Source of the DNA: a virus
UHGV virus genome: UHGV-0211888
Strand: one strand, 5' to 3'
DNA: 50,103 bases
Part shown: piece by piece, positions 1 through 50,103 of the stretch
Layout of the letters: each line of letters opens with the position of its first letter
How positions within the stretch are numbered: the stretch's first letter is position 1
Notes under the pieces: generated by a model
The model's database searches: none
What the model was told of the DNA's origin: nothing
What the model saw: only the letters and a program-made list of their open reading frames with translations
Made by a program: the position numbers and the translations under genes

Positions 1-190
1 ATTTTCGCGATTTTAGGGGGTAAAAATGGCCTTTTTTGGCACTTTTTTGCCATTTTTCGCGATTTTCGGACTTGCCACTTTTTTGCCACTTTTGCCCTTT
101 TTGCCACTTTTTTTGAAAAACTTTTCAGAAATCTTCAAAAATTTTTAAGACGTTTTATAAAAGTGGCAAAAAGTGGCAATAAAATAACAG
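1..190. repeat. Iteron array, putative replication origin/control region, left part. About 8 direct TTGCCAC(T)n units at 27-114 with ~10-12 bp phasing. Two inverted GTGGCAA units at 162-180. ATTTTCGCGATTTT occurs twice (1-14, 52-65).
   Basis: Read directly from the sequence: cttgccacttttttgccacttttgccctttttgccactttttttg, then aagtggcaaaaagtggcaat. There is no ORF of 60 aa or more in 1-425. Phased T-tracts continue to about 240. Confidence 0.6.
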
Positions 191-390
191 TGATTTTGCG
201 GGTTATTTTTCGCCTATTTTTTCATCATTTTTGCAAAAAGAAAGAGTATATGTAATACTTACTATACCCTTTCTTGGGCATTTACTTGTCCTGTTTTTTG
301 GTTCTTCTTTCTTCTTGGATTTTCTTTGTTTTAAAGTCATCTAGAATCTCTCCAGCAGTTGAGAAAGCCATTACCGCACTTGTCAATAAT

Positions 391-40458: not shown

Positions 40459-42204
40459 TCATTCGAATGCCTCCTTATTCTGCTTGTAAGCCACGAAGGC
40501 ATCCAACATGGCTGCTACATTATCAATTTTAGCATCGCGTCTTACTTTGTATAATTTTCTATTTCCATTGGTATCTTCCAAAGCTATACAATTACCCATA
40601 GCAAAAGTCATGAGTGATTGATCAAACTGTAAGAGCTTATTCTCGGCTAGCTTTTTAAGCTCTCCAAGAGGAACACTTTCAGTTTTGGATCCTTGTATAA
40701 CTTTAACGATACCATATGGTCCATTTTCTGTTTGCCATCTATCTACAAATTCTTTAGCGTTATAAGGATCGTATCCGAATGATCGAATGTCATACTTGCA
40801 ATCTGAAATATACTTATCCAGATCATCATAGACGTTCATCATATCAAGAATAGTTCCATCAAATACCATTAAAGATCCTTCAGTTATAAAATCTTCATAC
40901 TTTAAACGCATAGCCATAGGCAATTTATGCAAAGTATTTGATGTAATATAACTTCGAACCTTGATGCCAAACGAACCATCTGACAATGGGAACATAAATG
41001 TAAAAGCACAGAAATCATCACCTTGAGAAAGATCCGCTCCGAGTGCACAAGGCAAACCCCAGTAATCTCTTTTCCTTCCGGCTAGTGTTTCTTCATATGT
41101 AAAGTAATAAGTATAACCTTCCATAGGTATACCAAAACGCTTTGCCAAAATGTCATTCCTTGTCGCTGGAGCTTTTTCAGCTCTTTCTACATCTAGCTGA
41201 TAAGCTTCATAAGAAACAGTCTTTCCAATATTAGGATTAGCCTTAATCCACATTTCAGGATTACCAACTTCATTAATATTGTCAAGTTTATAATACCAGA
41301 TGGATACATGCGGGTTAACGTAATCACCTTTTAAGATGTCCATTAGCTCCATTTTGATTGTATCACCTGATCCGTTTCTTACAGTACCCTCAGAAGATAT
41401 GGCGACAATAAGATAATCATCAACTTTGGAAGCACCTTGTTCGATTGCTCCGACGACATCCTCTCGGACATCGCCAGAAAGCCATTCATCAATTGTAGCA
41501 ACCTTTACTCTTAAACCTTGAAGTTTGTCTATTCGCATTGGACGAATCTCTAGTAAGGAACCAGTCAGAAAGTTTTCGATACCTTTCTTTGTAGATGCAA
41601 GTTTTACCCTATTAGCTTTGGATCCAGTAGTATTCTGCAACGAACCTTCTGTCAAAAACTTAAACAGAGGACCTCTTGCTCTAGAAATGGATGTTCTAAT
41701 AGGAGACATAACTTCATCTGCTTGCTTCATGGTTGGAGCAGTACAAATCTGGTAAGTAGTTGTAGTATCAATATTAAGAAAATAACTTTGTATACAACTA
41801 CCATACATAGATTTTGCACCACCTCTTCCGAGAATAATATACTGCTTATTGACAAGACGCTTTTTAATATATCGCTTTTCGTAATGTCCTTTACCATTGT
41901 CACCATCTGGTATGAAGACGCTCCTTTCAAGAAAGTAATACCATCCAAATACTTCTTCAGCCCATAATTTAAATGAGTCAAGAAGTTTAAGATCAGAACC
42001 ATCGGTTAATGTCAATTCATTTTCACAATATTTTATGAAACCTTCAACTGCTTGGTCGTCATAATATACACCTGGATTGGCTATTAACTGATCAATCCGA
42101 TTCATCTCCATAGAGATTTCTTTACAGACTGGAAGTTGTCCATTTATGACCGCCTCTCTAAAACGGCCATAGTATTTAGGCACAGCCGTATTAGATAATG
42201 CCAT
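40459..42204 (-). CDS. Terminase large subunit (581 aa).
   Basis: Walker A-like ILGRGGAKS, a Walker B/coupling region VATIDEW, and a C-terminal RNaseH-like nuclease region with conserved acidic residues (YDPYNAKEF ... DNVAAMLDAF). Confidence 0.85.
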   Translation of the reverse strand: MALSNTAVPKYYGRFREAVINGQLPVCKEISMEMNRIDQLIANPGVYYDDQAVEGFIKYCENELTLTDGSDLKLLDSFKLWAEEVFGWYYFLERSVFIPDGDNGKGHYEKRYIKKRLVNKQYIILGRGGAKSMYGSCIQSYFLNIDTTTTYQICTAPTMKQADEVMSPIRTSISRARGPLFKFLTEGSLQNTTGSKANRVKLASTKKGIENFLTGSLLEIRPMRIDKLQGLRVKVATIDEWLSGDVREDVVGAIEQGASKVDDYLIVAISSEGTVRNGSGDTIKMELMDILKGDYVNPHVSIWYYKLDNINEVGNPEMWIKANPNIGKTVSYEAYQLDVERAEKAPATRNDILAKRFGIPMEGYTYYFTYEETLAGRKRDYWGLPCALGADLSQGDDFCAFTFMFPLSDGSFGIKVRSYITSNTLHKLPMAMRLKYEDFITEGSLMVFDGTILDMMNVYDDLDKYISDCKYDIRSFGYDPYNAKEFVDRWQTENGPYGIVKVIQGSKTESVPLGELKKLAENKLLQFDQSLMTFAMGNCIALEDTNGNRKLYKVRRDAKIDNVAAMLDAFVAYKQNKEAFE

Positions 42205-42212
42205 TTTGAATT

Positions 42213-43475
42213 TTACCTACGTTTCTTTTCAGTAGAGACGGGGAGTTTTCCTGTCTTCTTATAATAGTCAAATGCTTTCTGATTCGAAACTTCATTCATC
42301 TGTTGATTAACAACATAGTCGTTTTCTTTTTGTTTATTTTTAGTGAGTTTTTTAGCGACAGCACCTCCAATAAATCCTAAACTAGATGCTAGACCGATAG
42401 CTTTAGCCCAATTTATTCCACGTTTAAATTCATTGGTGTTAACTATTTTCCCAGTCTTTTTGTTCAACTTATTTTTGAATTTAAAGGAGTAGTCTGTAAA
42501 CCACTTATGGCCGGTCATCACTCCATGAGAACTAATTTTGGTCCCGGATAAATTTTTACCAATACGAAAACTGGAGTGATCTCCTTTGGGGCCAACAATG
42601 TTAGCAGCTCTGCTTTTTCCATACTTTTTGTCAAGAATAAGATTCACTGCATGAGCTCCTGCAACAACAGCGGCAGCAGCACCGATACCAATAGCAGTAC
42701 CGGTAGCAATTTTTCTAGCCTTATCATGCTGCTTATCTTTTTTGTATAAAGATCTTCCTTGCGGAGACATATTGCCTTGACGGTCGACTCCATAACGAAT
42801 CAAACCCTCATCAGTAAGAGAGCCATCGGGGTTCTGATAACGACGAATGCCCCACTTTTGACCTTTAACTCCATAGTGGTATAGTTCGTCAGAAAACTCA
42901 TCAGAATGTTTAGCAGAATCTTTATCTTTCTTGTCATTCTTACTTTTATCGATCTGACTTTGAACCTGAACATTCGGAATATTAACTGCATTAAATAGAT
43001 TAGGTAAAGTACCAGCACCGACCACTAATGACGCAATAGCTGCATTGGCCGCCATCTCACCAGCACGTACTTTTTTACCTTTTACCTTATTATATAATGC
43101 TGAAATTCCATAAGTTGCAGCAAAGGTTGCACCTGTAGAAATTAGGGAGGATAAGGCCGCCTTTTTAATAGCTGATCTCTTTTGTTGACTTCTTTTCTCC
43201 GGTGTAGAAACATCTTGGAGTCGCTTGTAGTTGTATTCGGCGTTAAGTCGATTAGACGACCTAATAAGGTCATCAGTTGACATCTTCTCAGGATCCTTAT
43301 AAGTTCCACTGTCATTGTACCTCGCTTTGCCTGCTTCAGTTAAAGTTCCGTCTTTGTTCTGATAATTACGAACTCCCCACTTTTGACCTTTAGTGCCATA
43401 GTGGTAAAGTTCATCATCTGAATTGGAAAGAAATTTATCTAAATAATTCTTTCCGATAGTAGTTTCATTTTTCAT
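42213..43475 (-). CDS. Hypothetical protein with two copies of a YHYG(T/V)KGQKWG(V/I)R.YQN.DG(T/S)LT(E/D) motif module, each followed by an Ala/Gly-rich hydrophobic segment (420 aa).
   Basis: ELYHYGTKGQKWGVRNYQNKDGTLTEAG and ELYHYGVKGQKWGIRRYQNPDGSLTDEG. Hydrophobic segments ALSSLISTGATFAATYGISALY and ATGTAIGIGAAAAVVAGAHAV. Confidence 0.45.
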   Translation of the reverse strand: MKNETTIGKNYLDKFLSNSDDELYHYGTKGQKWGVRNYQNKDGTLTEAGKARYNDSGTYKDPEKMSTDDLIRSSNRLNAEYNYKRLQDVSTPEKRSQQKRSAIKKAALSSLISTGATFAATYGISALYNKVKGKKVRAGEMAANAAIASLVVGAGTLPNLFNAVNIPNVQVQSQIDKSKNDKKDKDSAKHSDEFSDELYHYGVKGQKWGIRRYQNPDGSLTDEGLIRYGVDRQGNMSPQGRSLYKKDKQHDKARKIATGTAIGIGAAAAVVAGAHAVNLILDKKYGKSRAANIVGPKGDHSSFRIGKNLSGTKISSHGVMTGHKWFTDYSFKFKNKLNKKTGKIVNTNEFKRGINWAKAIGLASSLGFIGGAVAKKLTKNKQKENDYVVNQQMNEVSNQKAFDYYKKTGKLPVSTEKKRR

Positions 43476-44343: not shown

Positions 44344-44802
44344 TTAACCTCCTTTTATCCATGGTGCCGTATCATTCGGCATACGTTCAGTGAATTTCTT
44401 TTTATCCAAATATCGTTCATCACCAAAATGAATAGCATCATGAGTTTCCTTAGAAACACAGATCAAATATTCGGGATTGAGCAAAAAATCAGAGGATTTG
44501 TCTATATCGTCAATAGTAATAGGATTCATGTGATGGACATATATCCTTCCTCCGATCTCTCGATCTTGAATTCCTAAATCGCAGCCATTATCTCTTACAA
44601 TAACAAAGTCTCTGATATGTTTCCATTCAACTGATCTGTAAAATTGCTGATTCAAATATCTGTCGAATCCGAATGTAGAATCTCCAACATTAGAAAAGCA
44701 CTCTAAATATCTAAAACGTTCTTCAAATGTAGGAAGTTGAATTAATTCTGTATAAGTTTTAATAACTTTTCTATTGGCCATTAGAATTTTCACCTCCATC
44801 AT
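44344..44802 (-). CDS. HNH endonuclease (packaging-associated).
   Basis: CDLG...YVHHMNPI...THDAIHF is an H-N-H pattern. It lies upstream of the terminase, as in cos-type phages. Confidence 0.75.
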   Translation of the reverse strand: MMEVKILMANRKVIKTYTELIQLPTFEERFRYLECFSNVGDSTFGFDRYLNQQFYRSVEWKHIRDFVIVRDNGCDLGIQDREIGGRIYVHHMNPITIDDIDKSSDFLLNPEYLICVSKETHDAIHFGDERYLDKKKFTERMPNDTAPWIKGG

Positions 44803-45130
44803 TTGGATCGTAACCAGAATATGAGCGCATAGCCTTCAAGGCATCTTCATAAAGCTCCTCAGTATGCTTAGCTGATTTAATTGCATCAATCTTTGCCTGA
44901 GTAAGTTCATTTTCTTTTGCAAGTTGCTCTCGTTCGAGCTGTTCTTTCACCGTAGCTAGCTTTAAAAAATGAGTTGTCTCTTGAGAAGAGGCAGTTCCGT
45001 TCTTTAATCGCTGTTCTACTAAGTCCATCGCCAATGAAATCATTTGGTTCTCTCTTGCTTCTGGAGTTAGAGCCGGTCTTGTTGGCTGAGTAACCTCAGA
45101 ACCAGAGATCACGGTTCTCTTTTTATACAT
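44771..45130 (-). CDS. Hypothetical protein (119 aa), possible terminase small subunit by position.
   Basis: First gene after the structured intergenic region, with an HTH-like N-terminal region. Weak call. Confidence 0.25.
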   Translation of the reverse strand: MYKKRTVISGSEVTQPTRPALTPEARENQMISLAMDLVEQRLKNGTASSQETTHFLKLATVKEQLEREQLAKENELTQAKIDAIKSAKHTEELYEDALKAMRSYSGYDPNDGGENSNGQ

Positions 45131-45454
45131 TTCTGTTCTCCTTTAAAGTAGATTAAATATAATTTTTATATAGTTTTGGTTAACTATTTGGAGGAGCGTA
45201 CTAACTTTTTCCATAGTTTCTTGACCCGATACCTAAGGAGAAAGCAGGAGGAAGATAAAACAATAAATCTTTCATGAACTAGTAGTACGCCCCTCCAAAC
45301 AGCTAACCCTCCGAGCAAAAACATTTATAAAAAATATCCCGCCGGAGAATTTTTTCAGAGCCACGCGATTCGAGGGGGTGCACATATTGCTATACCCTCC
45401 CCCGGGTCTGAAAAATGCTGTTTGAGGTCTATTTTATTGATATTTTAGGCCATT
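45131..45454. promoter_or_regulatory. GC-rich structured intergenic region. A 17-bp inverted repeat (45187-45203 / 45283-45299, one mismatch) has a 79-nt loop. A second imperfect stem is TTTTTCAGA...TCTGAAAAA (45350-45415), with an internal GGGGG/CCCCC pair.
   Basis: tttggaggagcgtacta pairs with tagtacgcccctccaaa. Local GC is far above the rest of the genome. The region sits between the early block and the packaging block. Confidence 0.55.
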
Positions 45455-45715
45455 TTATTGACTTTTTTGTACAATTTTGTACTCGATGATGTTACCATCT
45501 TTCGAAATTGCACCTGTTTGCATCATGACTTTCATAGATCTCTCTATAGATTCTTTATTTTCTTCATCAGATAGTGAATCTGAAGTGATTGCAAGCGAAG
45601 CAAGTCTTTCGCAAGTGTTGTAACCTTTCTGAACGTCGAACGAAAGCCAATTGTCCCAATCAGTAAAGGGATTCCAAGGGTTATCAACAGTGGTAATTAA
45701 TGTTTGATTTGCCAT
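45455..45715 (-). CDS. Hypothetical protein (86 aa).
   Basis: ORF downstream of the RNAP-like gene. Confidence 0.4.
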   Translation of the reverse strand: MANQTLITTVDNPWNPFTDWDNWLSFDVQKGYNTCERLASLAITSDSLSDEENKESIERSMKVMMQTGAISKDGNIIEYKIVQKSQ

Positions 45716-45718
45716 AGT

Positions 45719-48700
45719 TTACTCCTTTCCTGATAAGTATTTAGTAACAGTAGAAGGCGACACATTCAATGTATCGGCTATTTCTGCTGTTGTCAGACCA
45801 CTATTAGCCATAGCTTTCATACGTGAAATCTTAGATGGGCTGAGAACAGTAGTAGTTCTAGGTAAGGCTAACTGTTTAAGCCTTTGATCATCTACATATT
45901 TCATGATATTTTTAAGACGGGCAGTTGATATTGCACCGGCTTGTATGGCAGCCCATTCATTATCTGTAATTGATATTGGGTGTCTTTTTGCACCTACTTT
46001 TCTTCTTGCTATCATAAGCTCCTTTTGGGAAAGCTTTTGATATTCTTCGTTTGTCATATTAGGATCTGCTTGCCTCTTGGCTTTAAGATTAGTCTGAGCT
46101 ATTACTTGAGCCTGACGCTCTCTAGGGGCATTTAACTCTGACTGATTAAGCTTGTATTTTAATTGTTGCACCTCTGTTGCATATTTTTGGGCAGCATCTC
46201 TAGAATAGGGAATGTCTTCTACAGCCATACTCTCTTTTCTAGATTTAAGAGCCAAAGCTTTCAAATAATTTGCATAATCGGCGTATAATTCCTCTTGAGG
46301 AGTGCCAGAACTTAATGCATGGGCATCTTTCACGGCATTCATCTTAGGAATATTCATCATAGCTTTCTTAGAAATAATCTTCTTAGGATCTGTGATCTGA
46401 ACATACTCTTTTGTCTCAGGATCTTTGTAATAGTATTTACCATCTTGAGCAAAAGCAGATACAGTTTTGGTCTTATTAGTACCATTTACCTTAATCTGTG
46501 TCTGGTAATATGTCCTGTTTGTGTCATGATACAATAACTCTCCGGTTTTAGGATCAGTATATCTTGTACCAACACCCTTCTTACCTTTAAACATCTCACC
46601 AGTAGATCTGTCAATATATGTTTCATTCTTCTCATCAACTACGTCAAGCTTCTTACCATTATCTTTACGATAGAATTCACCTGGTTTTCTTTCAGGAATA
46701 GCATAATCTGCACTTGCTTGAGAAATAAGTGTCGAAGCACCGCCAAGTTTTTCAGTTCCTGATAAAGGATCGTAATGAGATTGATATTTGGCTTTTAATT
46801 GAGAAATATTGTTGTCAATATATGACTGCTTATAGTCGTACTTGTGCTTTACTGCATCAATAACAACCATTGAATGTCTAACCGCACGAGCAATTTCATC
46901 ATCAGTTGCACCTCTGAGTGTCATATCAGTAATAAGATTCGAAATCTGTCCCATTTCCTTTTGTTTGGAACCTTCGGACATGATTTTATACTCTTTACCA
47001 TTACGATATGCATGCTCAGTTCCATCTTTATCAAATTTAATTTCAGATGGACCATATGAATCGCCAGGATCAAAATTTTCGAGACCTTTAAGAGCCTTAG
47101 AAGAATTGACTCTAGTATTATCACTTAATGGAATGCAAATAACAGTATCACCATCGAAGTCCGCACCAGACATTTTGGCTGCGGCTTTAGCAGTAATACC
47201 AATAGCATCGCTAGGGGTTTTACCAAGATGCTCTTGAGCTTCTTTGTTGTCATTGTTCACAGTTAAGACAGGAATCTCAAAAGTACCACCATGAGGGAAA
47301 CGAATAAGAGCAACTTGTCTACCATTAGGTAAATCTGGATTGTAACATTCATCATCCTTTAACGATGGAACAGGAAGAATAACCTTATACTTTTGACCAG
47401 AAAATGCAGCAGCCTTTAAACTAACAGAAGCGGCATCACAATCATCGGCATAAGATTCAAGCAAATGACGTTTAATAGTAGGATTAGTCAATGACATAAT
47501 CTCATCATATTCATCTTGTTTGTCTTTCTCAGATTGGAGTATTTGCTTCTTAATAGTAGATTTTGGTTGTTTAGATAGAAATTGAGAAGGAAGTTCATGC
47601 GACCAATCTCCCCAATCACCTTCATCAGATCTTTTGTTAATTGCTGACAAGGATTGTTTATTGCCTGTCATCGGATCAGTATATTTACCATTAGGATCAT
47701 CGTAATATGATTGACCACCGACTTCCTTGATTGCAGAACCGAAAGGATTGTCAGGATCTTTCTTAATAGCTTTAAGAACACCGCCATCGGAAGTAGGCTT
47801 TCCATTAGCATCAAATGCCTCCAAAGGAGTTCCGGTCTTCTTACTAGTATTAAATCTGATGTCAACACCTTTAGGAAGGTCATCTGAATAAACAGCCATA
47901 CCTTTAAGGTAATGAGTTCCATCGACCATAATACGAACCTGAGAATATGCAGATCCACCAAGACTTAAATCTTTAACTCCTGGACGAATCTCAATAAGAC
48001 CATCTCTTTCAGCACCGCCTTGATCACTATATCTGACAGCAACTCGCTTAGAAGATATAGAAGTCGGATACCTGAAAGAAGGTTCAAGTGTTTGCCCACC
48101 ATCTCTAGTGGTGAAGTCTTCAACGCCATGAATATCCTCCAATTTATAAGCATCAGAATATGGAACTCCAGGAGGACAAAGTACTTTAACAGTTGTAAAA
48201 TTTCCTTTATTAGTAGCTTGTTCTACTCTAATTGAATATACATTGTAGCCTTTTTCTTTGAGAATCTCAATAGCAGAATTAAGTTTCTCTCTTGAAACTC
48301 CTAAATATTTCTCAGATTGGGTTCCAACATCGATCATACCTTTTTCTTTTACAATAGTTTCGAGATTATCGGCAACTTTCTGAGTTTTACTAAGACGATT
48401 CTGTCTTTCAGAGTTTAATGCACTCCTGACGGAAGATTCGTTAATACCCAACTTTCTACCGATTTCTGTAGGAGTAAGACCATCTTTCTGCAAAGATTTA
48501 ATATCTGCTAGAATGAGTTTTCTTCTTTCTTCAGTTGCGATAGAACGCTTTGCTCTAAATTGAGTTGTACTCATTCCAAGAGCATTAGCAATCTCAACTT
48601 CGGACATTCCTTTAGACTTCATTTCATCAATACGGCTAAGAAAGTCACCGGTTCTTTGATAAGGATCATCACCAGAACCCCAAGGATAACGTCCTGAATG

Positions 48701-48814
48701 TCTTGGAGTACCATAATGTTTTACATCTTCATCTGATTCTTTATCCTCACCAAGAAAAATATCTGGAGAGGGTTTTTCTAAATTGATTTTTCCGTTTCGT
48801 TTTTGCTCGTTCAT
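45719..48814 (-). CDS. Two-barrel (DPBB) polymerase homologous to the multisubunit RNAP beta-prime/beta catalytic core (YonO-like single-subunit RNAP) fused to sigma-region-4-like HTH domains, 1031 aa.
   Basis: aa 503-556 LIRFPHGGTFEIPVL...AKAAAKMSGADFDGDTVICIPL (nt ~47147-47314). Compare beta-prime NRAPTLHRLGIQAFEPVL...AAYNADFDGDQMAVHVPL. aa 740-752 EMFKGKKGVGTRY (nt ~46571-46585); compare beta RHGNKGVVSRI. HTHs: MSEVEIANALGMSTTQFR, LTPTEIGRKLGINESSVRSAL, LTTAEIADTLNVSPSTVTKYL. Confidence 0.55.
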   Translation of the reverse strand: MNEQKRNGKINLEKPSPDIFLGEDKESDEDVKHYGTPRHSGRYPWGSGDDPYQRTGDFLSRIDEMKSKGMSEVEIANALGMSTTQFRAKRSIATEERRKLILADIKSLQKDGLTPTEIGRKLGINESSVRSALNSERQNRLSKTQKVADNLETIVKEKGMIDVGTQSEKYLGVSREKLNSAIEILKEKGYNVYSIRVEQATNKGNFTTVKVLCPPGVPYSDAYKLEDIHGVEDFTTRDGGQTLEPSFRYPTSISSKRVAVRYSDQGGAERDGLIEIRPGVKDLSLGGSAYSQVRIMVDGTHYLKGMAVYSDDLPKGVDIRFNTSKKTGTPLEAFDANGKPTSDGGVLKAIKKDPDNPFGSAIKEVGGQSYYDDPNGKYTDPMTGNKQSLSAINKRSDEGDWGDWSHELPSQFLSKQPKSTIKKQILQSEKDKQDEYDEIMSLTNPTIKRHLLESYADDCDAASVSLKAAAFSGQKYKVILPVPSLKDDECYNPDLPNGRQVALIRFPHGGTFEIPVLTVNNDNKEAQEHLGKTPSDAIGITAKAAAKMSGADFDGDTVICIPLSDNTRVNSSKALKGLENFDPGDSYGPSEIKFDKDGTEHAYRNGKEYKIMSEGSKQKEMGQISNLITDMTLRGATDDEIARAVRHSMVVIDAVKHKYDYKQSYIDNNISQLKAKYQSHYDPLSGTEKLGGASTLISQASADYAIPERKPGEFYRKDNGKKLDVVDEKNETYIDRSTGEMFKGKKGVGTRYTDPKTGELLYHDTNRTYYQTQIKVNGTNKTKTVSAFAQDGKYYYKDPETKEYVQITDPKKIISKKAMMNIPKMNAVKDAHALSSGTPQEELYADYANYLKALALKSRKESMAVEDIPYSRDAAQKYATEVQQLKYKLNQSELNAPRERQAQVIAQTNLKAKRQADPNMTNEEYQKLSQKELMIARRKVGAKRHPISITDNEWAAIQAGAISTARLKNIMKYVDDQRLKQLALPRTTTVLSPSKISRMKAMANSGLTTAEIADTLNVSPSTVTKYLSGKE

Positions 48815-49455
48815 TATCTAGAATTCCTTTCCATAATTTCTATGATCTGCTTGTTACGTATAACTATCAGATTCATAATATTCTCGATGTCATTTGGATT
48901 TGCTTCATCTTCGATGATCTGTTGATTTTGATAGATTCTTAAAATGATCTTAAAATCTTTAGGATGCTTGTGATACTCCAAACAGAATAAAGCAGCATAA
49001 ATCATAAGTTGCTCCATATGTGCAGGAATAGTACCAGATTTGTAATCTGAGATTCTGAGAATTCTTTCTCTATCAGAAAAATAAATAGCATCTGTTGTTC
49101 CGAAGCAATAGTTGCTGTAATAAAGAAGAACCTCGGAACTCATTCTGAATCCGATTGAGTCATTAACGAAGTTCATCAAATTTAATAGAATAGACTCAGT
49201 ATCAAAAGCAGAATATGGAATTCCAGCTTTATAAAGGGTGATGTTAATCAGATGCCTATCGCTCTTATTAAGCTTGGTTCCTGACTTAATACAATCACTC
49301 GCTAATTGATGAAGAGCTGTTCCCATATCAGTTGCATACTGAGAATAGAAACGTTGCTCAAAATTATCATCAGTCCAATTAAGCCAATGATAGTTGCTGC
49401 CGCCCATAAGGGCATGCTTTCCTTCCAAGTTGTGGTGGTCATTCCACATGATCAT
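48814..49455 (-). CDS. PD-(D/E)xK nuclease, RecB/YqaJ-like (213 aa).
   Basis: GTTDAIYF ... ISDYKSG (D...DxK) and EQLMIYAALF (the QhxxY motif of RecB-family nucleases). Confidence 0.45.
   Translation of the reverse strand: MIMWNDHHNLEGKHALMGGSNYHWLNWTDDNFEQRFYSQYATDMGTALHQLASDCIKSGTKLNKSDRHLINITLYKAGIPYSAFDTESILLNLMNFVNDSIGFRMSSEVLLYYSNYCFGTTDAIYFSDRERILRISDYKSGTIPAHMEQLMIYAALFCLEYHKHPKDFKIILRIYQNQQIIEDEANPNDIENIMNLIVIRNKQIIEIMERNSR

Positions 49456-49989: not shown

Positions 49990-50103
<114 letters not shown>

Follow-up and report, generated by a model that had tools for sequence, protein, structure and literature searches.

Evidence for a cos region and a structured late-gene leader in the non-coding gap of an uncultured phage related to 1706, Oengus and actinophages

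In the virus genome UHGV-0211888, analyzed here as one stretch of 50,103 nucleotides (the window), all open reading frames (ORFs) of any size lie on the minus strand, and the region described below is read in this gene orientation. A gap of 324 bp (45131-45454) separates an 86-amino-acid (aa) ORF (45455-45715, minus strand) from a 119-aa ORF (44771-45130, minus strand). With a probability of roughly 0.85, we conclude that, in a siphophage with cos packaging, this gap holds the cohesive-end (cos) region together with the structured leader of the first late gene, and that the phage belongs to a lineage including Lactococcus phage 1706, Faecalibacterium phage Oengus, Arthrobacter phages of clusters AU and AM, Streptomyces phages of cluster BI, and Gordonia and Rhodococcus phages. 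The first-pass annotation had listed a cos site among several candidates for the gap, and this candidate was strongly supported by synteny with phages of determined ends, by a conserved junction, and by same-species contig ends that place the cut at 45358/45368.

Since DNA similarity searches of the region against a phage collection, in near and distant modes, gave no match, relatives were reached via the flanking proteins. Homologues of all three flanking proteins were found in some 240-250 phage records, covering phages of Arthrobacter, Gordonia, Streptomyces, Rhodococcus, Curtobacterium and Microbacterium, the Lactococcus 1706 group, Faecalibacterium phage Oengus, and gut-virome contigs. 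For the pattern-based locus search, the 86-aa protein gave one locus only, and the C-terminus of the RNA polymerase (RNAP) encoded before it worked better. The SEA-PHAGES records are linear genomes deposited with determined ends, and many of them close with the RNAP and 86-aa homologues. In Mudcat, they are found at 56445-59120 and 59132-59389, respectively, of a 59443-bp genome, and RosaAsantewaa has its 86-aa homologue at 42276-42548 (genome, 42730 bp). The 119-aa homologue, in turn, is the first gene in RosaAsantewaa (106-459), Bing and Rima, and the same holds for Streptomyces phages of cluster BI and for Arthrobacter phages including Sporto and GantcherGoblin, whereas it is the third gene in Mudcat. 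The right end of Lactococcus phage 1706 is arranged in the same way, with orf4 as the 119-aa homologue; its last gene, orf76, follows the RNAP homologue and also encodes 86 aa, and was likened to the 86-aa ORF of the window by length and position only. In dozens of phages whose linear genomes have determined ends, the homologues of the genes flanking the gap close and open the genome, which makes the gap the counterpart of the point at which these genomes begin and end. The spread of this lineage across Actinobacteria and Firmicutes has been described before, and a shared ancestry was proposed (bioRxiv 10.1101/842583).

Contigs of the same species, with leaders 97-100% identical to that of the window, placed the cut to the base. 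Two of these (L107, ENA ERZ27239164, and L111, Logan SRR25448543) start at CTGAAAAAATTCTCC, which is base 45358 (the start being written CTGAAAAAATTC), and two scaffolds (L120, ERZ28615146, and L121, ERZ28573681) end at ...CACCCCCTCGAAT, which is base 45368 (the end being written ...CCCCCTCGAAT). The 9 nt in between, CGCGTGGCT (45359-45367), were present in neither end. A gap rather than an overlap between the contig ends is what 3' overhangs lost in end repair would leave, whereas filled-in 5' overhangs or terminal repeats would overlap. A lambda-type 5' overhang was rejected on the same grounds, as the sequence was absent from both ends instead of being duplicated, and as the relatives have 3' overhangs. 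Packaging by a headful (pac) mechanism and direct terminal repeats were likewise discarded, given that the ends were precise to a single base and non-overlapping; the pac site that the first-pass annotation had put forward would have given scattered ends.

The same end positions were found in more distant relatives. Among the best 80 IMG/VR loci by the 119-aa protein, at least 17 contigs start exactly at the first base after the overhang, including genome-length contigs of 60-63 kb. In one of the IMG/VR contigs (L061), the Illumina adapter ...GCTCTTCCGATCT is fused directly to the left-end base (L061 1-32). On the right-end side, three contigs (L088-L090) end at ...CACCCCCTGCTGAAT, and another (L093) reaches ...CCCCCTCCTGCAT, the homologous right-end base, before running into the adapter AGATCGGAAGAGCA (its last 14 nt). 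Fixed genome ends were thus seen in contig termini, in adapter fusions and in the ends of deposited linear genomes, the metagenomic part of this evidence being indirect, as it comes from contigs. It could be argued that the contig ends are assembly or sequencing artefacts of G/C runs and hairpins, with no physical end behind them. Hairpins do break assemblies: four contigs (L017, L058, L063, and L069) break inside the leader hairpin described below, and these four, together with L041, start inside the stem interior, at or near its TTCTCCTTTC box and not at cos, where assemblers probably break at the long inverted repeat. However, one exact base recurred in many independent assemblies and on both sides of the 9-nt gap, sequencing adapters were ligated at those very bases, and isolated phages have their experimentally determined end at the homologous position, so that we consider the probability of an artefact to be negligible.

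It was also noted that public IMG/VR contigs keep Illumina adapter sequence at phage ends (L061 1-32, the last 14 nt of L093, and L067 1-5), and that the last ~19 nt of L091 are M13/lacZ vector-like sequence placed directly after the right end plus the full 9-nt CGCGCCCCT. Such retained adapter and vector sequences are useful end markers, yet they are database contamination.

To compare the cut site between phages, the right and left ends of Mudcat and RosaAsantewaa were joined and aligned to the window. With slashes on either side of the overhang, the junction reads ...CCCGGGGGAGGG..CACCCCCTCGAAT/CGCGTGGCT/CTGAAAAAATTCTCCGGCGGGATATTTT in the window (right end in full ...CCCGGGGGAGGGTATAGCAATATGTGCACCCCCTCGAAT, left end CTGAAAAAATTCTCCGGCGGGATATTTTTT...) and ...GGGGGAGGGGGTC..ACCCCCCCTCTGCAT/CGCCGGCCT/CCCCAAAAAATCCCCGGGGGAATATTT in Mudcat (right end in full ...GGGGGAGGGGGTCTCGCAAAAGGTACCCCCCCTCTGCAT), and that of phage 1706, ...GGGGGGTTCGCAAAAAATGGAACTCCTTTGCATC/GCCCTGTCT/CTCTAAAATTTCCCCG..., fits the pattern. 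Across 36 unique junctions from IMG/VR, Logan/ENA and GenBank, four features were shared: a G-run/C-run inverted repeat, the motif AT/CGC....T/, an A/T-rich stretch of 15 nt with YCC at its end, and GGRGG with a T-tract behind it. In the window, the right-end inverted repeat has a G-run arm (CCCGGGGGAGGG on the gene strand, 45395-45406, minus) that pairs in the fold with the C-run arm (CACCCCCTCG, followed by AAT; 45371-45380, minus), and the right end stops at base 45368. The G-run arm was kept as GGGGAGGGGGTC in the 36 junctions, including those of Mudcat and RosaAsantewaa, with GGGGGGTTCGC at the same place in 1706, and the CACCCCCTCC of the C-run arm was among the most conserved columns of the alignment. 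The left-end box CTGAAAAAATTCTCCGGCGGGATATTTTTT (45329-45358, minus), whose first base is that of the left end, consists of an A-tract, a quasi-palindromic YCCGGRGG core with near-invariant columns, and a T-tract.

Between these elements lies the predicted 9-nt 3' cohesive overhang CGCGTGGCT (45359-45367, minus), a prediction based on homology and on its absence from both same-species ends. It aligned with CGCCGGCCT in Mudcat and CGCCCGCCT in RosaAsantewaa, which are the last 9 nt of those records. A 9-bp 3' overhang, 5'-CGCCGGCCT, has been reported for GantcherGoblin and cluster AU (PMC9753662, PMC5679793), and 9-10-nt 3' overhangs for the Lactococcus 1706 group, namely, GCCCTGTCT for 1706 and CGCCCCAGTC for P078, P092, P118, and P162 (PMC4110766).

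The first-pass annotation had described the gap as GC-rich and highly structured, and had flagged four G/C strings in it. The strings were found as described (GGAGGAGCG at 45190-45198, CCCCTCC at 45290-45296, CGAGGGGGTG at 45371-45380, and CCCTCCCCCGGG at 45395-45406), and the G/C-rich strings flagged earlier correspond to both arms of the right-end repeat (45395-45406 and 45371-45380) and to the core of the left-end box (45337-45349). The gap as a whole is not GC-rich (38.0% GC versus 35.8% for the window); rather, G/C runs cluster in it, with 2 of the 3 G5/C5 runs of the window and 2 of its 4 G/C-only runs of at least 8 bases. The description as highly structured was borne out on both strands and more strongly on the gene strand: the RNA minimum free energy of the minus strand was -99 kcal/mol, compared to a shuffle mean of -73.3 (z = -5.44, with 0 of 100 shuffles as good), and that of the plus strand was -87.1 kcal/mol (z = -3.65). 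The second imperfect stem that had been proposed was also present in the fold, at ~45351-45415. As for the first, a 17-bp stem (45187-45203/45283-45299) with a 79-nt loop, it does exist, with 16 Watson-Crick pairs and one A.C mismatch on the plus strand (a G.U pair on the gene strand), but it is only the inner part of a longer helix.

This helix lies in the leader of the first late gene, which measures 228 nt from the left end to the ATG in the window and 210-260 nt in relatives. Its 5' arm, GGTTAGCTGTTTGGAGGGGCGTACTA (45283-45308, minus), and its 3' arm, TAGTACGCTCCTCCAAATAGTTAACC (45178-45203, minus), form 26 pairs, three of them G.U, around a 79-nt interior (45204-45282, minus) that holds the CU-rich box CTTCCTCCTGCTTTCTCCTTAGG (45232-45254). 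In the Firmicute and gut relatives that were folded, an equivalent stem of 23-37 pairs around 45-120 nt was found, with arm sequences that are largely unrelated. The gap-free inverted-repeat score of 60 distinct leaders had a median of 40 and a maximum of 56, compared to a median of 16 and a maximum of 30 for shuffled leaders and a median of 16 and a maximum of 24 for coding sequence from the same loci. Inversion of the loop as an inverton was rejected, as the loop has the same orientation in every relative and same-species contig.

The mismatches in these stems were strongly asymmetric between the strands. Although both types were scored equally in the search, 119 mismatches were of the G.U type and 24 of the A.C type on the gene strand, and a count by hand, with one representative per distinct stem, gave roughly 100 and 17, respectively. 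Between the window and a relative with 90% identical proteins (L103), whose stem has 28 pairs, five of them G.U and none A.C, there were compensatory changes. Within the species, 3'-arm variants with C to T gave G.U and those with G to A gave A-U, and one variant gave an A.C mismatch. Pairing is thus retained through compensatory and wobble changes with a strand asymmetry, as is generally looked for in cis-regulatory RNA structures. The G.U bias and the compensatory changes point to selection on the leader stem as a sense-strand RNA structure or, less likely, as single-stranded coding-strand DNA, and not as a double-stranded protein site.

We also considered whether the long inverted repeat could be part of cos at the DNA level, either as inverted terminase sites of the cosB type that are joined by bending, as R3 and R2 are around the IHF site in lambda, or as a cruciform. 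The repeat does lie between the cut and the first gene, as do lambda cosB and the TerS site of HK97 (PMC11331095), the adjacent phased A/T tracts suggest bent DNA, and arms that covary are expected if one protein reads both. However, a double-stranded DNA site predicts equal numbers of the two mismatch types, whereas G.T-type mismatches were five times as frequent as A.C-type ones on the gene strand; furthermore, the arms, at 25-35 bp, are longer than expected for a protein site, and actinophage members of the lineage cut the same cos core without such a stem. We therefore regard a DNA-level role of the repeat as unlikely and retain selection at the RNA level as the better reading of the stem. 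The structured non-coding RNA of the first-pass annotation is upheld in part by the G.U bias and the compensatory changes; the structure does not stand alone, as it lies in the 5' leader of the first late gene, and it matched no Rfam family.

That annotation had further suggested a strong terminator or antiterminator switch at a place where transcription must end. The gap does hold very stable hairpins where two functional blocks on the same strand meet, and if they acted as a terminator, attenuator or antiterminator between the replication/RNAP block and the late genes, the signal could be a non-canonical one, since the phage encodes its own RNAP and the termination signals of such enzymes are not known (PMC5467207). 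However, a terminator scan found nothing on the minus strand within 44700-45900, no U-tract follows either hairpin, and there was no Rfam match to a leader or antiterminator. In addition, the G/C-run hairpin is conserved as DNA exactly around the genome ends, which explains it without transcription. Nothing shows that transcription has to end in the gap either, because every gene is on one strand. We consider a termination or antitermination role quite improbable. More generally, Rfam 15 gave no match at gathering score in the window or in 20 related loci, with chance-level matches only at E <= 10, and ARAGORN found nothing in the region.

The interior of the leader stem carries a conserved box. 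The sequence (T)TTCTCCTTTCA or a close variant was present in the loop of all 31 relatives examined and of phage 1706; in the window, it is CTTTCTCCTTAGG (45232-45244), of the CUCCUUUC type, and TTCTCCTT occurs only once on the gene strand of the 50-kb window, in this leader. We take the CUCCUUUC-type box to correspond to the anti-Shine-Dalgarno tail of Firmicute 16S rRNA. Closer to the gene, two AAAAYTATAT boxes (45157-45166 and 45168-45177, minus) lie between the stem and the ribosome-binding site, and by inspection AAAACTRTAT recurs just upstream of the first-gene Shine-Dalgarno sequence in relatives. As a repeated phage promoter, this motif was rejected, with 17 matches in the window versus 20.4 expected.

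As a working guess, the hairpin would be a processing or stability element, such as a long double-stranded RNA cut by RNase III, or a translation-control element of the late operon, which transcripts would reach only across the sealed cos junction or from some promoter. More speculatively, the leader element may be an undescribed cis-acting RNA or single-strand signal of 1706/Oengus-like Firmicute phages and, possibly, a single entry or control point of the late operon, for instance as a signal that the phage polymerase recognizes or as a switch linking late expression to circularization of the genome. This tentative idea is based on the box being found a single time per genome, immediately behind the sealed cos junction, in phages with a YonO-like RNAP; alternatively, the element is merely a stabilizing hairpin.

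Several observations weigh against the combined reading of the gap as cos region and leader. For the cos part, the 3' polarity in the window phage is predicted from homology and from the 9 missing nucleotides, and the ends come from metagenome contigs. Two Logan contigs, L110 and L106, have their first base 6 nt inside the predicted overhang and begin with GTGGCT and CTGGCT, respectively; such starts may reflect the library type, partial retention of the overhang, or a variable nick. The window itself, which comes from scaffold_275 of ENA ERZ28641133 (50146 bp), reads straight through the cos site, so that its source must have been DNA that was circular, concatemeric or joined at the ends. The 119-aa protein had no match in Pfam, NCBIfam, PDB sequence or profile searches, nor in a Foldseek search against PDB. 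For the leader, the hairpin is known from sequence alone and no promoter was identified for it. The actinophages Mudcat and RosaAsantewaa have no long stem, whereas 1706 has one, and since these actinophages keep the cos core, the stem is an add-on of the low-GC branch that cos does not require. Pairing in cis of the loop box with the first-gene Shine-Dalgarno sequence found no support, as cognate duplexes were no better than permuted ones (P = 0.88), in a weak test in which some start codons are perhaps wrong.

Finally, the box reads as a perfect ribosome-binding site in antisense, with an ATG nearby in 12 of the 31 relatives compared to 15% in controls. It could therefore be that the stem interior codes on the antisense (plus) strand, for a leftward transcript or mini-ORF starting from the GAAAGGAG ribosome-binding site, e.g., an antisense RNA across cos. 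The complement of the box is indeed the canonical Firmicute ribosome-binding site, the ATG follows within 3-11 nt in those 12 relatives, and Mudcat has a leftward gene between cos and its 119-aa homologue. On the other hand, the resulting ORFs are unrelated and only 3-33 aa long, and in the window effectively absent (an ATG, one codon, and a stop), the G.U bias favors the sense strand, and no leftward promoter was identified. We give this antisense reading little credence and keep the stem interior as part of a sense-strand leader.

Given the position of the cut relative to the conserved elements, we propose the following mechanism for cos cleavage. Concatemeric DNA would be cut with a 9-nt stagger, so that the right end stops at 45368 (...CACCCCCTCGAAT), the left end starts at 45358 (CTGAAAAAATTCTCC...), and CGCGTGGCT (45359-45367) forms complementary 3' overhangs. 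The two conserved symmetric elements flanking the cut, the repeat at 45371-45406 and the quasi-palindrome at 45329-45358, would position the terminase, and the large terminase subunit (TerL) together with the adjacent HNH endonuclease would make the staggered cut, as in HK97. In that phage, the small terminase (TerS) binds 15 bp starting 15 bp downstream of the cut, reading a G and the adjacent A-tract, the 3' overhang is 10 nt, and cutting is stimulated by the HNH protein gp74 (PMC11331095). The HK97-like mechanism is proposed because a near-invariant box is present at +1 to +30 after the cut and because HNH and TerL are encoded downstream; an HNH gene beside cos and a TerL with a nuclease domain are the expected components of such a system. 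The left-end box (45329-45358) is thereby a candidate for the TerS recognition site, and the proteins named here as binding and cutting are those we infer from this comparison.

The gene immediately downstream of the gap had been labeled as a putative TerS. The 119-aa protein (phrog_4259; 44771-45130, minus), which is encoded first after cos, is part of a family with at least ~8000 members, and its AlphaFold2 model consists of one short and one long helix (predicted local distance difference test score, 75.7). With neither sequence nor fold searches identifying a small terminase, the label comes down to position, and naming the protein as a candidate small terminase is a guess on that basis. 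The gene has a Shine-Dalgarno sequence, AAAGGAGAA (45136-45144, minus), and an ATG at 45128-45130, both read from the sequence. It is followed by the HNH endonuclease gene (44344-44802, minus; phrog_4321, E = 4.8e-60), whose counterpart in SEA-PHAGES relatives is annotated as HNH at the same neighboring position. The start of the HNH gene is uncertain, as it encodes 152 aa in the ORF list, with a 32-nt overlap with the 119-aa gene (44771-44802), and 145 aa according to gene callers. The gap had been described as lying directly upstream of a TerS-HNH-TerL group; this holds for the 119-aa gene and HNH, but TerL is found ~2.5 kb further on, after genes for a connector protein and two DUF7211 proteins. 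TerL (40459-42204, minus) has both ATPase and nuclease domains (Pfam TerL_nuclease, 3.7e-34, and TerL_ATPase; phrog_9, 4.9e-110).

On the other side of the gap, the RNAP/nuclease block that had been predicted there was confirmed by annotation. In gene orientation, an exonuclease (48814-49455, minus) is followed by a protein of 1031 aa (45719-48814, minus; phrog_4291), a YonO-type 'RNA-dependent RNA polymerase' according to PHROGs and RefSeq, and by the 86-aa ORF (45455-45715, minus; phrog_4303), the last gene before the right genome end. The 1031-aa polymerase has helix-turn-helix (HTH) or sigma-region-4-like matches near both termini (~residues 57-177 and 990-1030), and SEA-PHAGES records label its homologue only as 'HTH DNA-binding protein'. 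In phage 1706, the RNAP homologue orf75 (EU081845.1 52082-55171, locus L123) is annotated as 'structural protein', which hints that the polymerase may travel in the virion.

Other features of the locus were noted as well. A 46-aa ORF within the gap (45184-45324) was dismissed as spurious, as it has no ribosome-binding site and spans the stem. In near-identical relatives, an extra 81-aa gene (Pfam PF25189, Tad8) is present between the leader and the 119-aa gene (L107 229-474; L117 2086-2331), using the same ribosome-binding site and ATG position as the 119-aa gene; it looks like a moron or anti-defense insertion in the first slot of the late operon. The ends of the window (1-240 and 49990-50103) contain dense GTGGCAA(A)/TTTGCCAC repeats in both orientations and a T24 run (50030-50053). 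The window ends seem to cut through these repeat arrays, which may represent an iteron-like origin or a regulatory array and probably mark the point at which assembly of the ~50-kb circular or concatemeric genome broke.

Locating cos to a single base gives an uncultured 50-kb phage its genome ends, with packaging and structural genes first and the RNA polymerase last. It also reveals a non-coding packaging signal that is recognizable across phages of low-GC Firmicutes and high-GC Actinobacteria, which supports the shared ancestry proposed for this lineage (bioRxiv 10.1101/842583), and the junction signature offers a simple means to locate the ends of thousands of related gut-virome contigs. 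The leader hairpin with its CU box is conserved and lacks an Rfam counterpart, and phage 1706, which has it, can be cultivated. In a literature search that was far from exhaustive, neither the conserved cos architecture nor the leader element was found to have been described.

Compared to HK97, the window shares a defined cos cut with a predicted 3' overhang of ~10 nt, an HNH gene beside cos and the terminase genes, and a conserved A-tract element within ~30 bp on the downstream side of the cut, the place that TerS binds in HK97 (PMC11331095). It differs in having no sequence similarity to HK97, in the position of the HNH gene, which lies downstream of cos after the 119-aa gene, in that no recognizable TerS was found, and in having four more genes after HNH between cos and TerL. 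The cos site of lambda (cosQ-cosN-cosB) is similar in its partly symmetric nicking site, its flanking accessory elements, and its ~200-bp non-coding stretch at the left end. However, lambda has 12-nt 5' overhangs, no HNH and no sequence relation to the window, whose predicted overhang sequence is missing from both contig ends.

Long RNA hairpins are known from phage mRNA leaders, such as the RNase III processing sites of T7, lambda and SP82 and the put-type antiterminator RNAs. The window resembles them in having a helix of >20 bp in the 5' leader of a phage operon that is kept as structure and not as sequence. To our knowledge, there is no counterpart to the interior of 45-120 nt with its conserved CUCCUUUC box.

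The closest systems are those of the Lactococcus 1706 group and of clusters AU, AM and BI, all of which have the same order of exonuclease, RNAP, small gene, cos, 119-aa gene and HNH, with 0-3 extra genes between cos and the 119-aa gene. They share the junction as well, that is, the G-run/C-run repeat, AT/CGCSSSSCT/, and the box of A-tract, YCCGGRGG and T-tract, with a predicted overhang of the same length at the same position. The overhang sequence differs, being CGCGTGGCT in the window and CGCCGGCCT or GCCCTGTCT in relatives, with the window ends taken from contigs rather than virions, and the long leader hairpin is present in the window and in 1706, whereas the actinophage members are without it. 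The cos site itself is a further case of a cos type already determined in isolated relatives.

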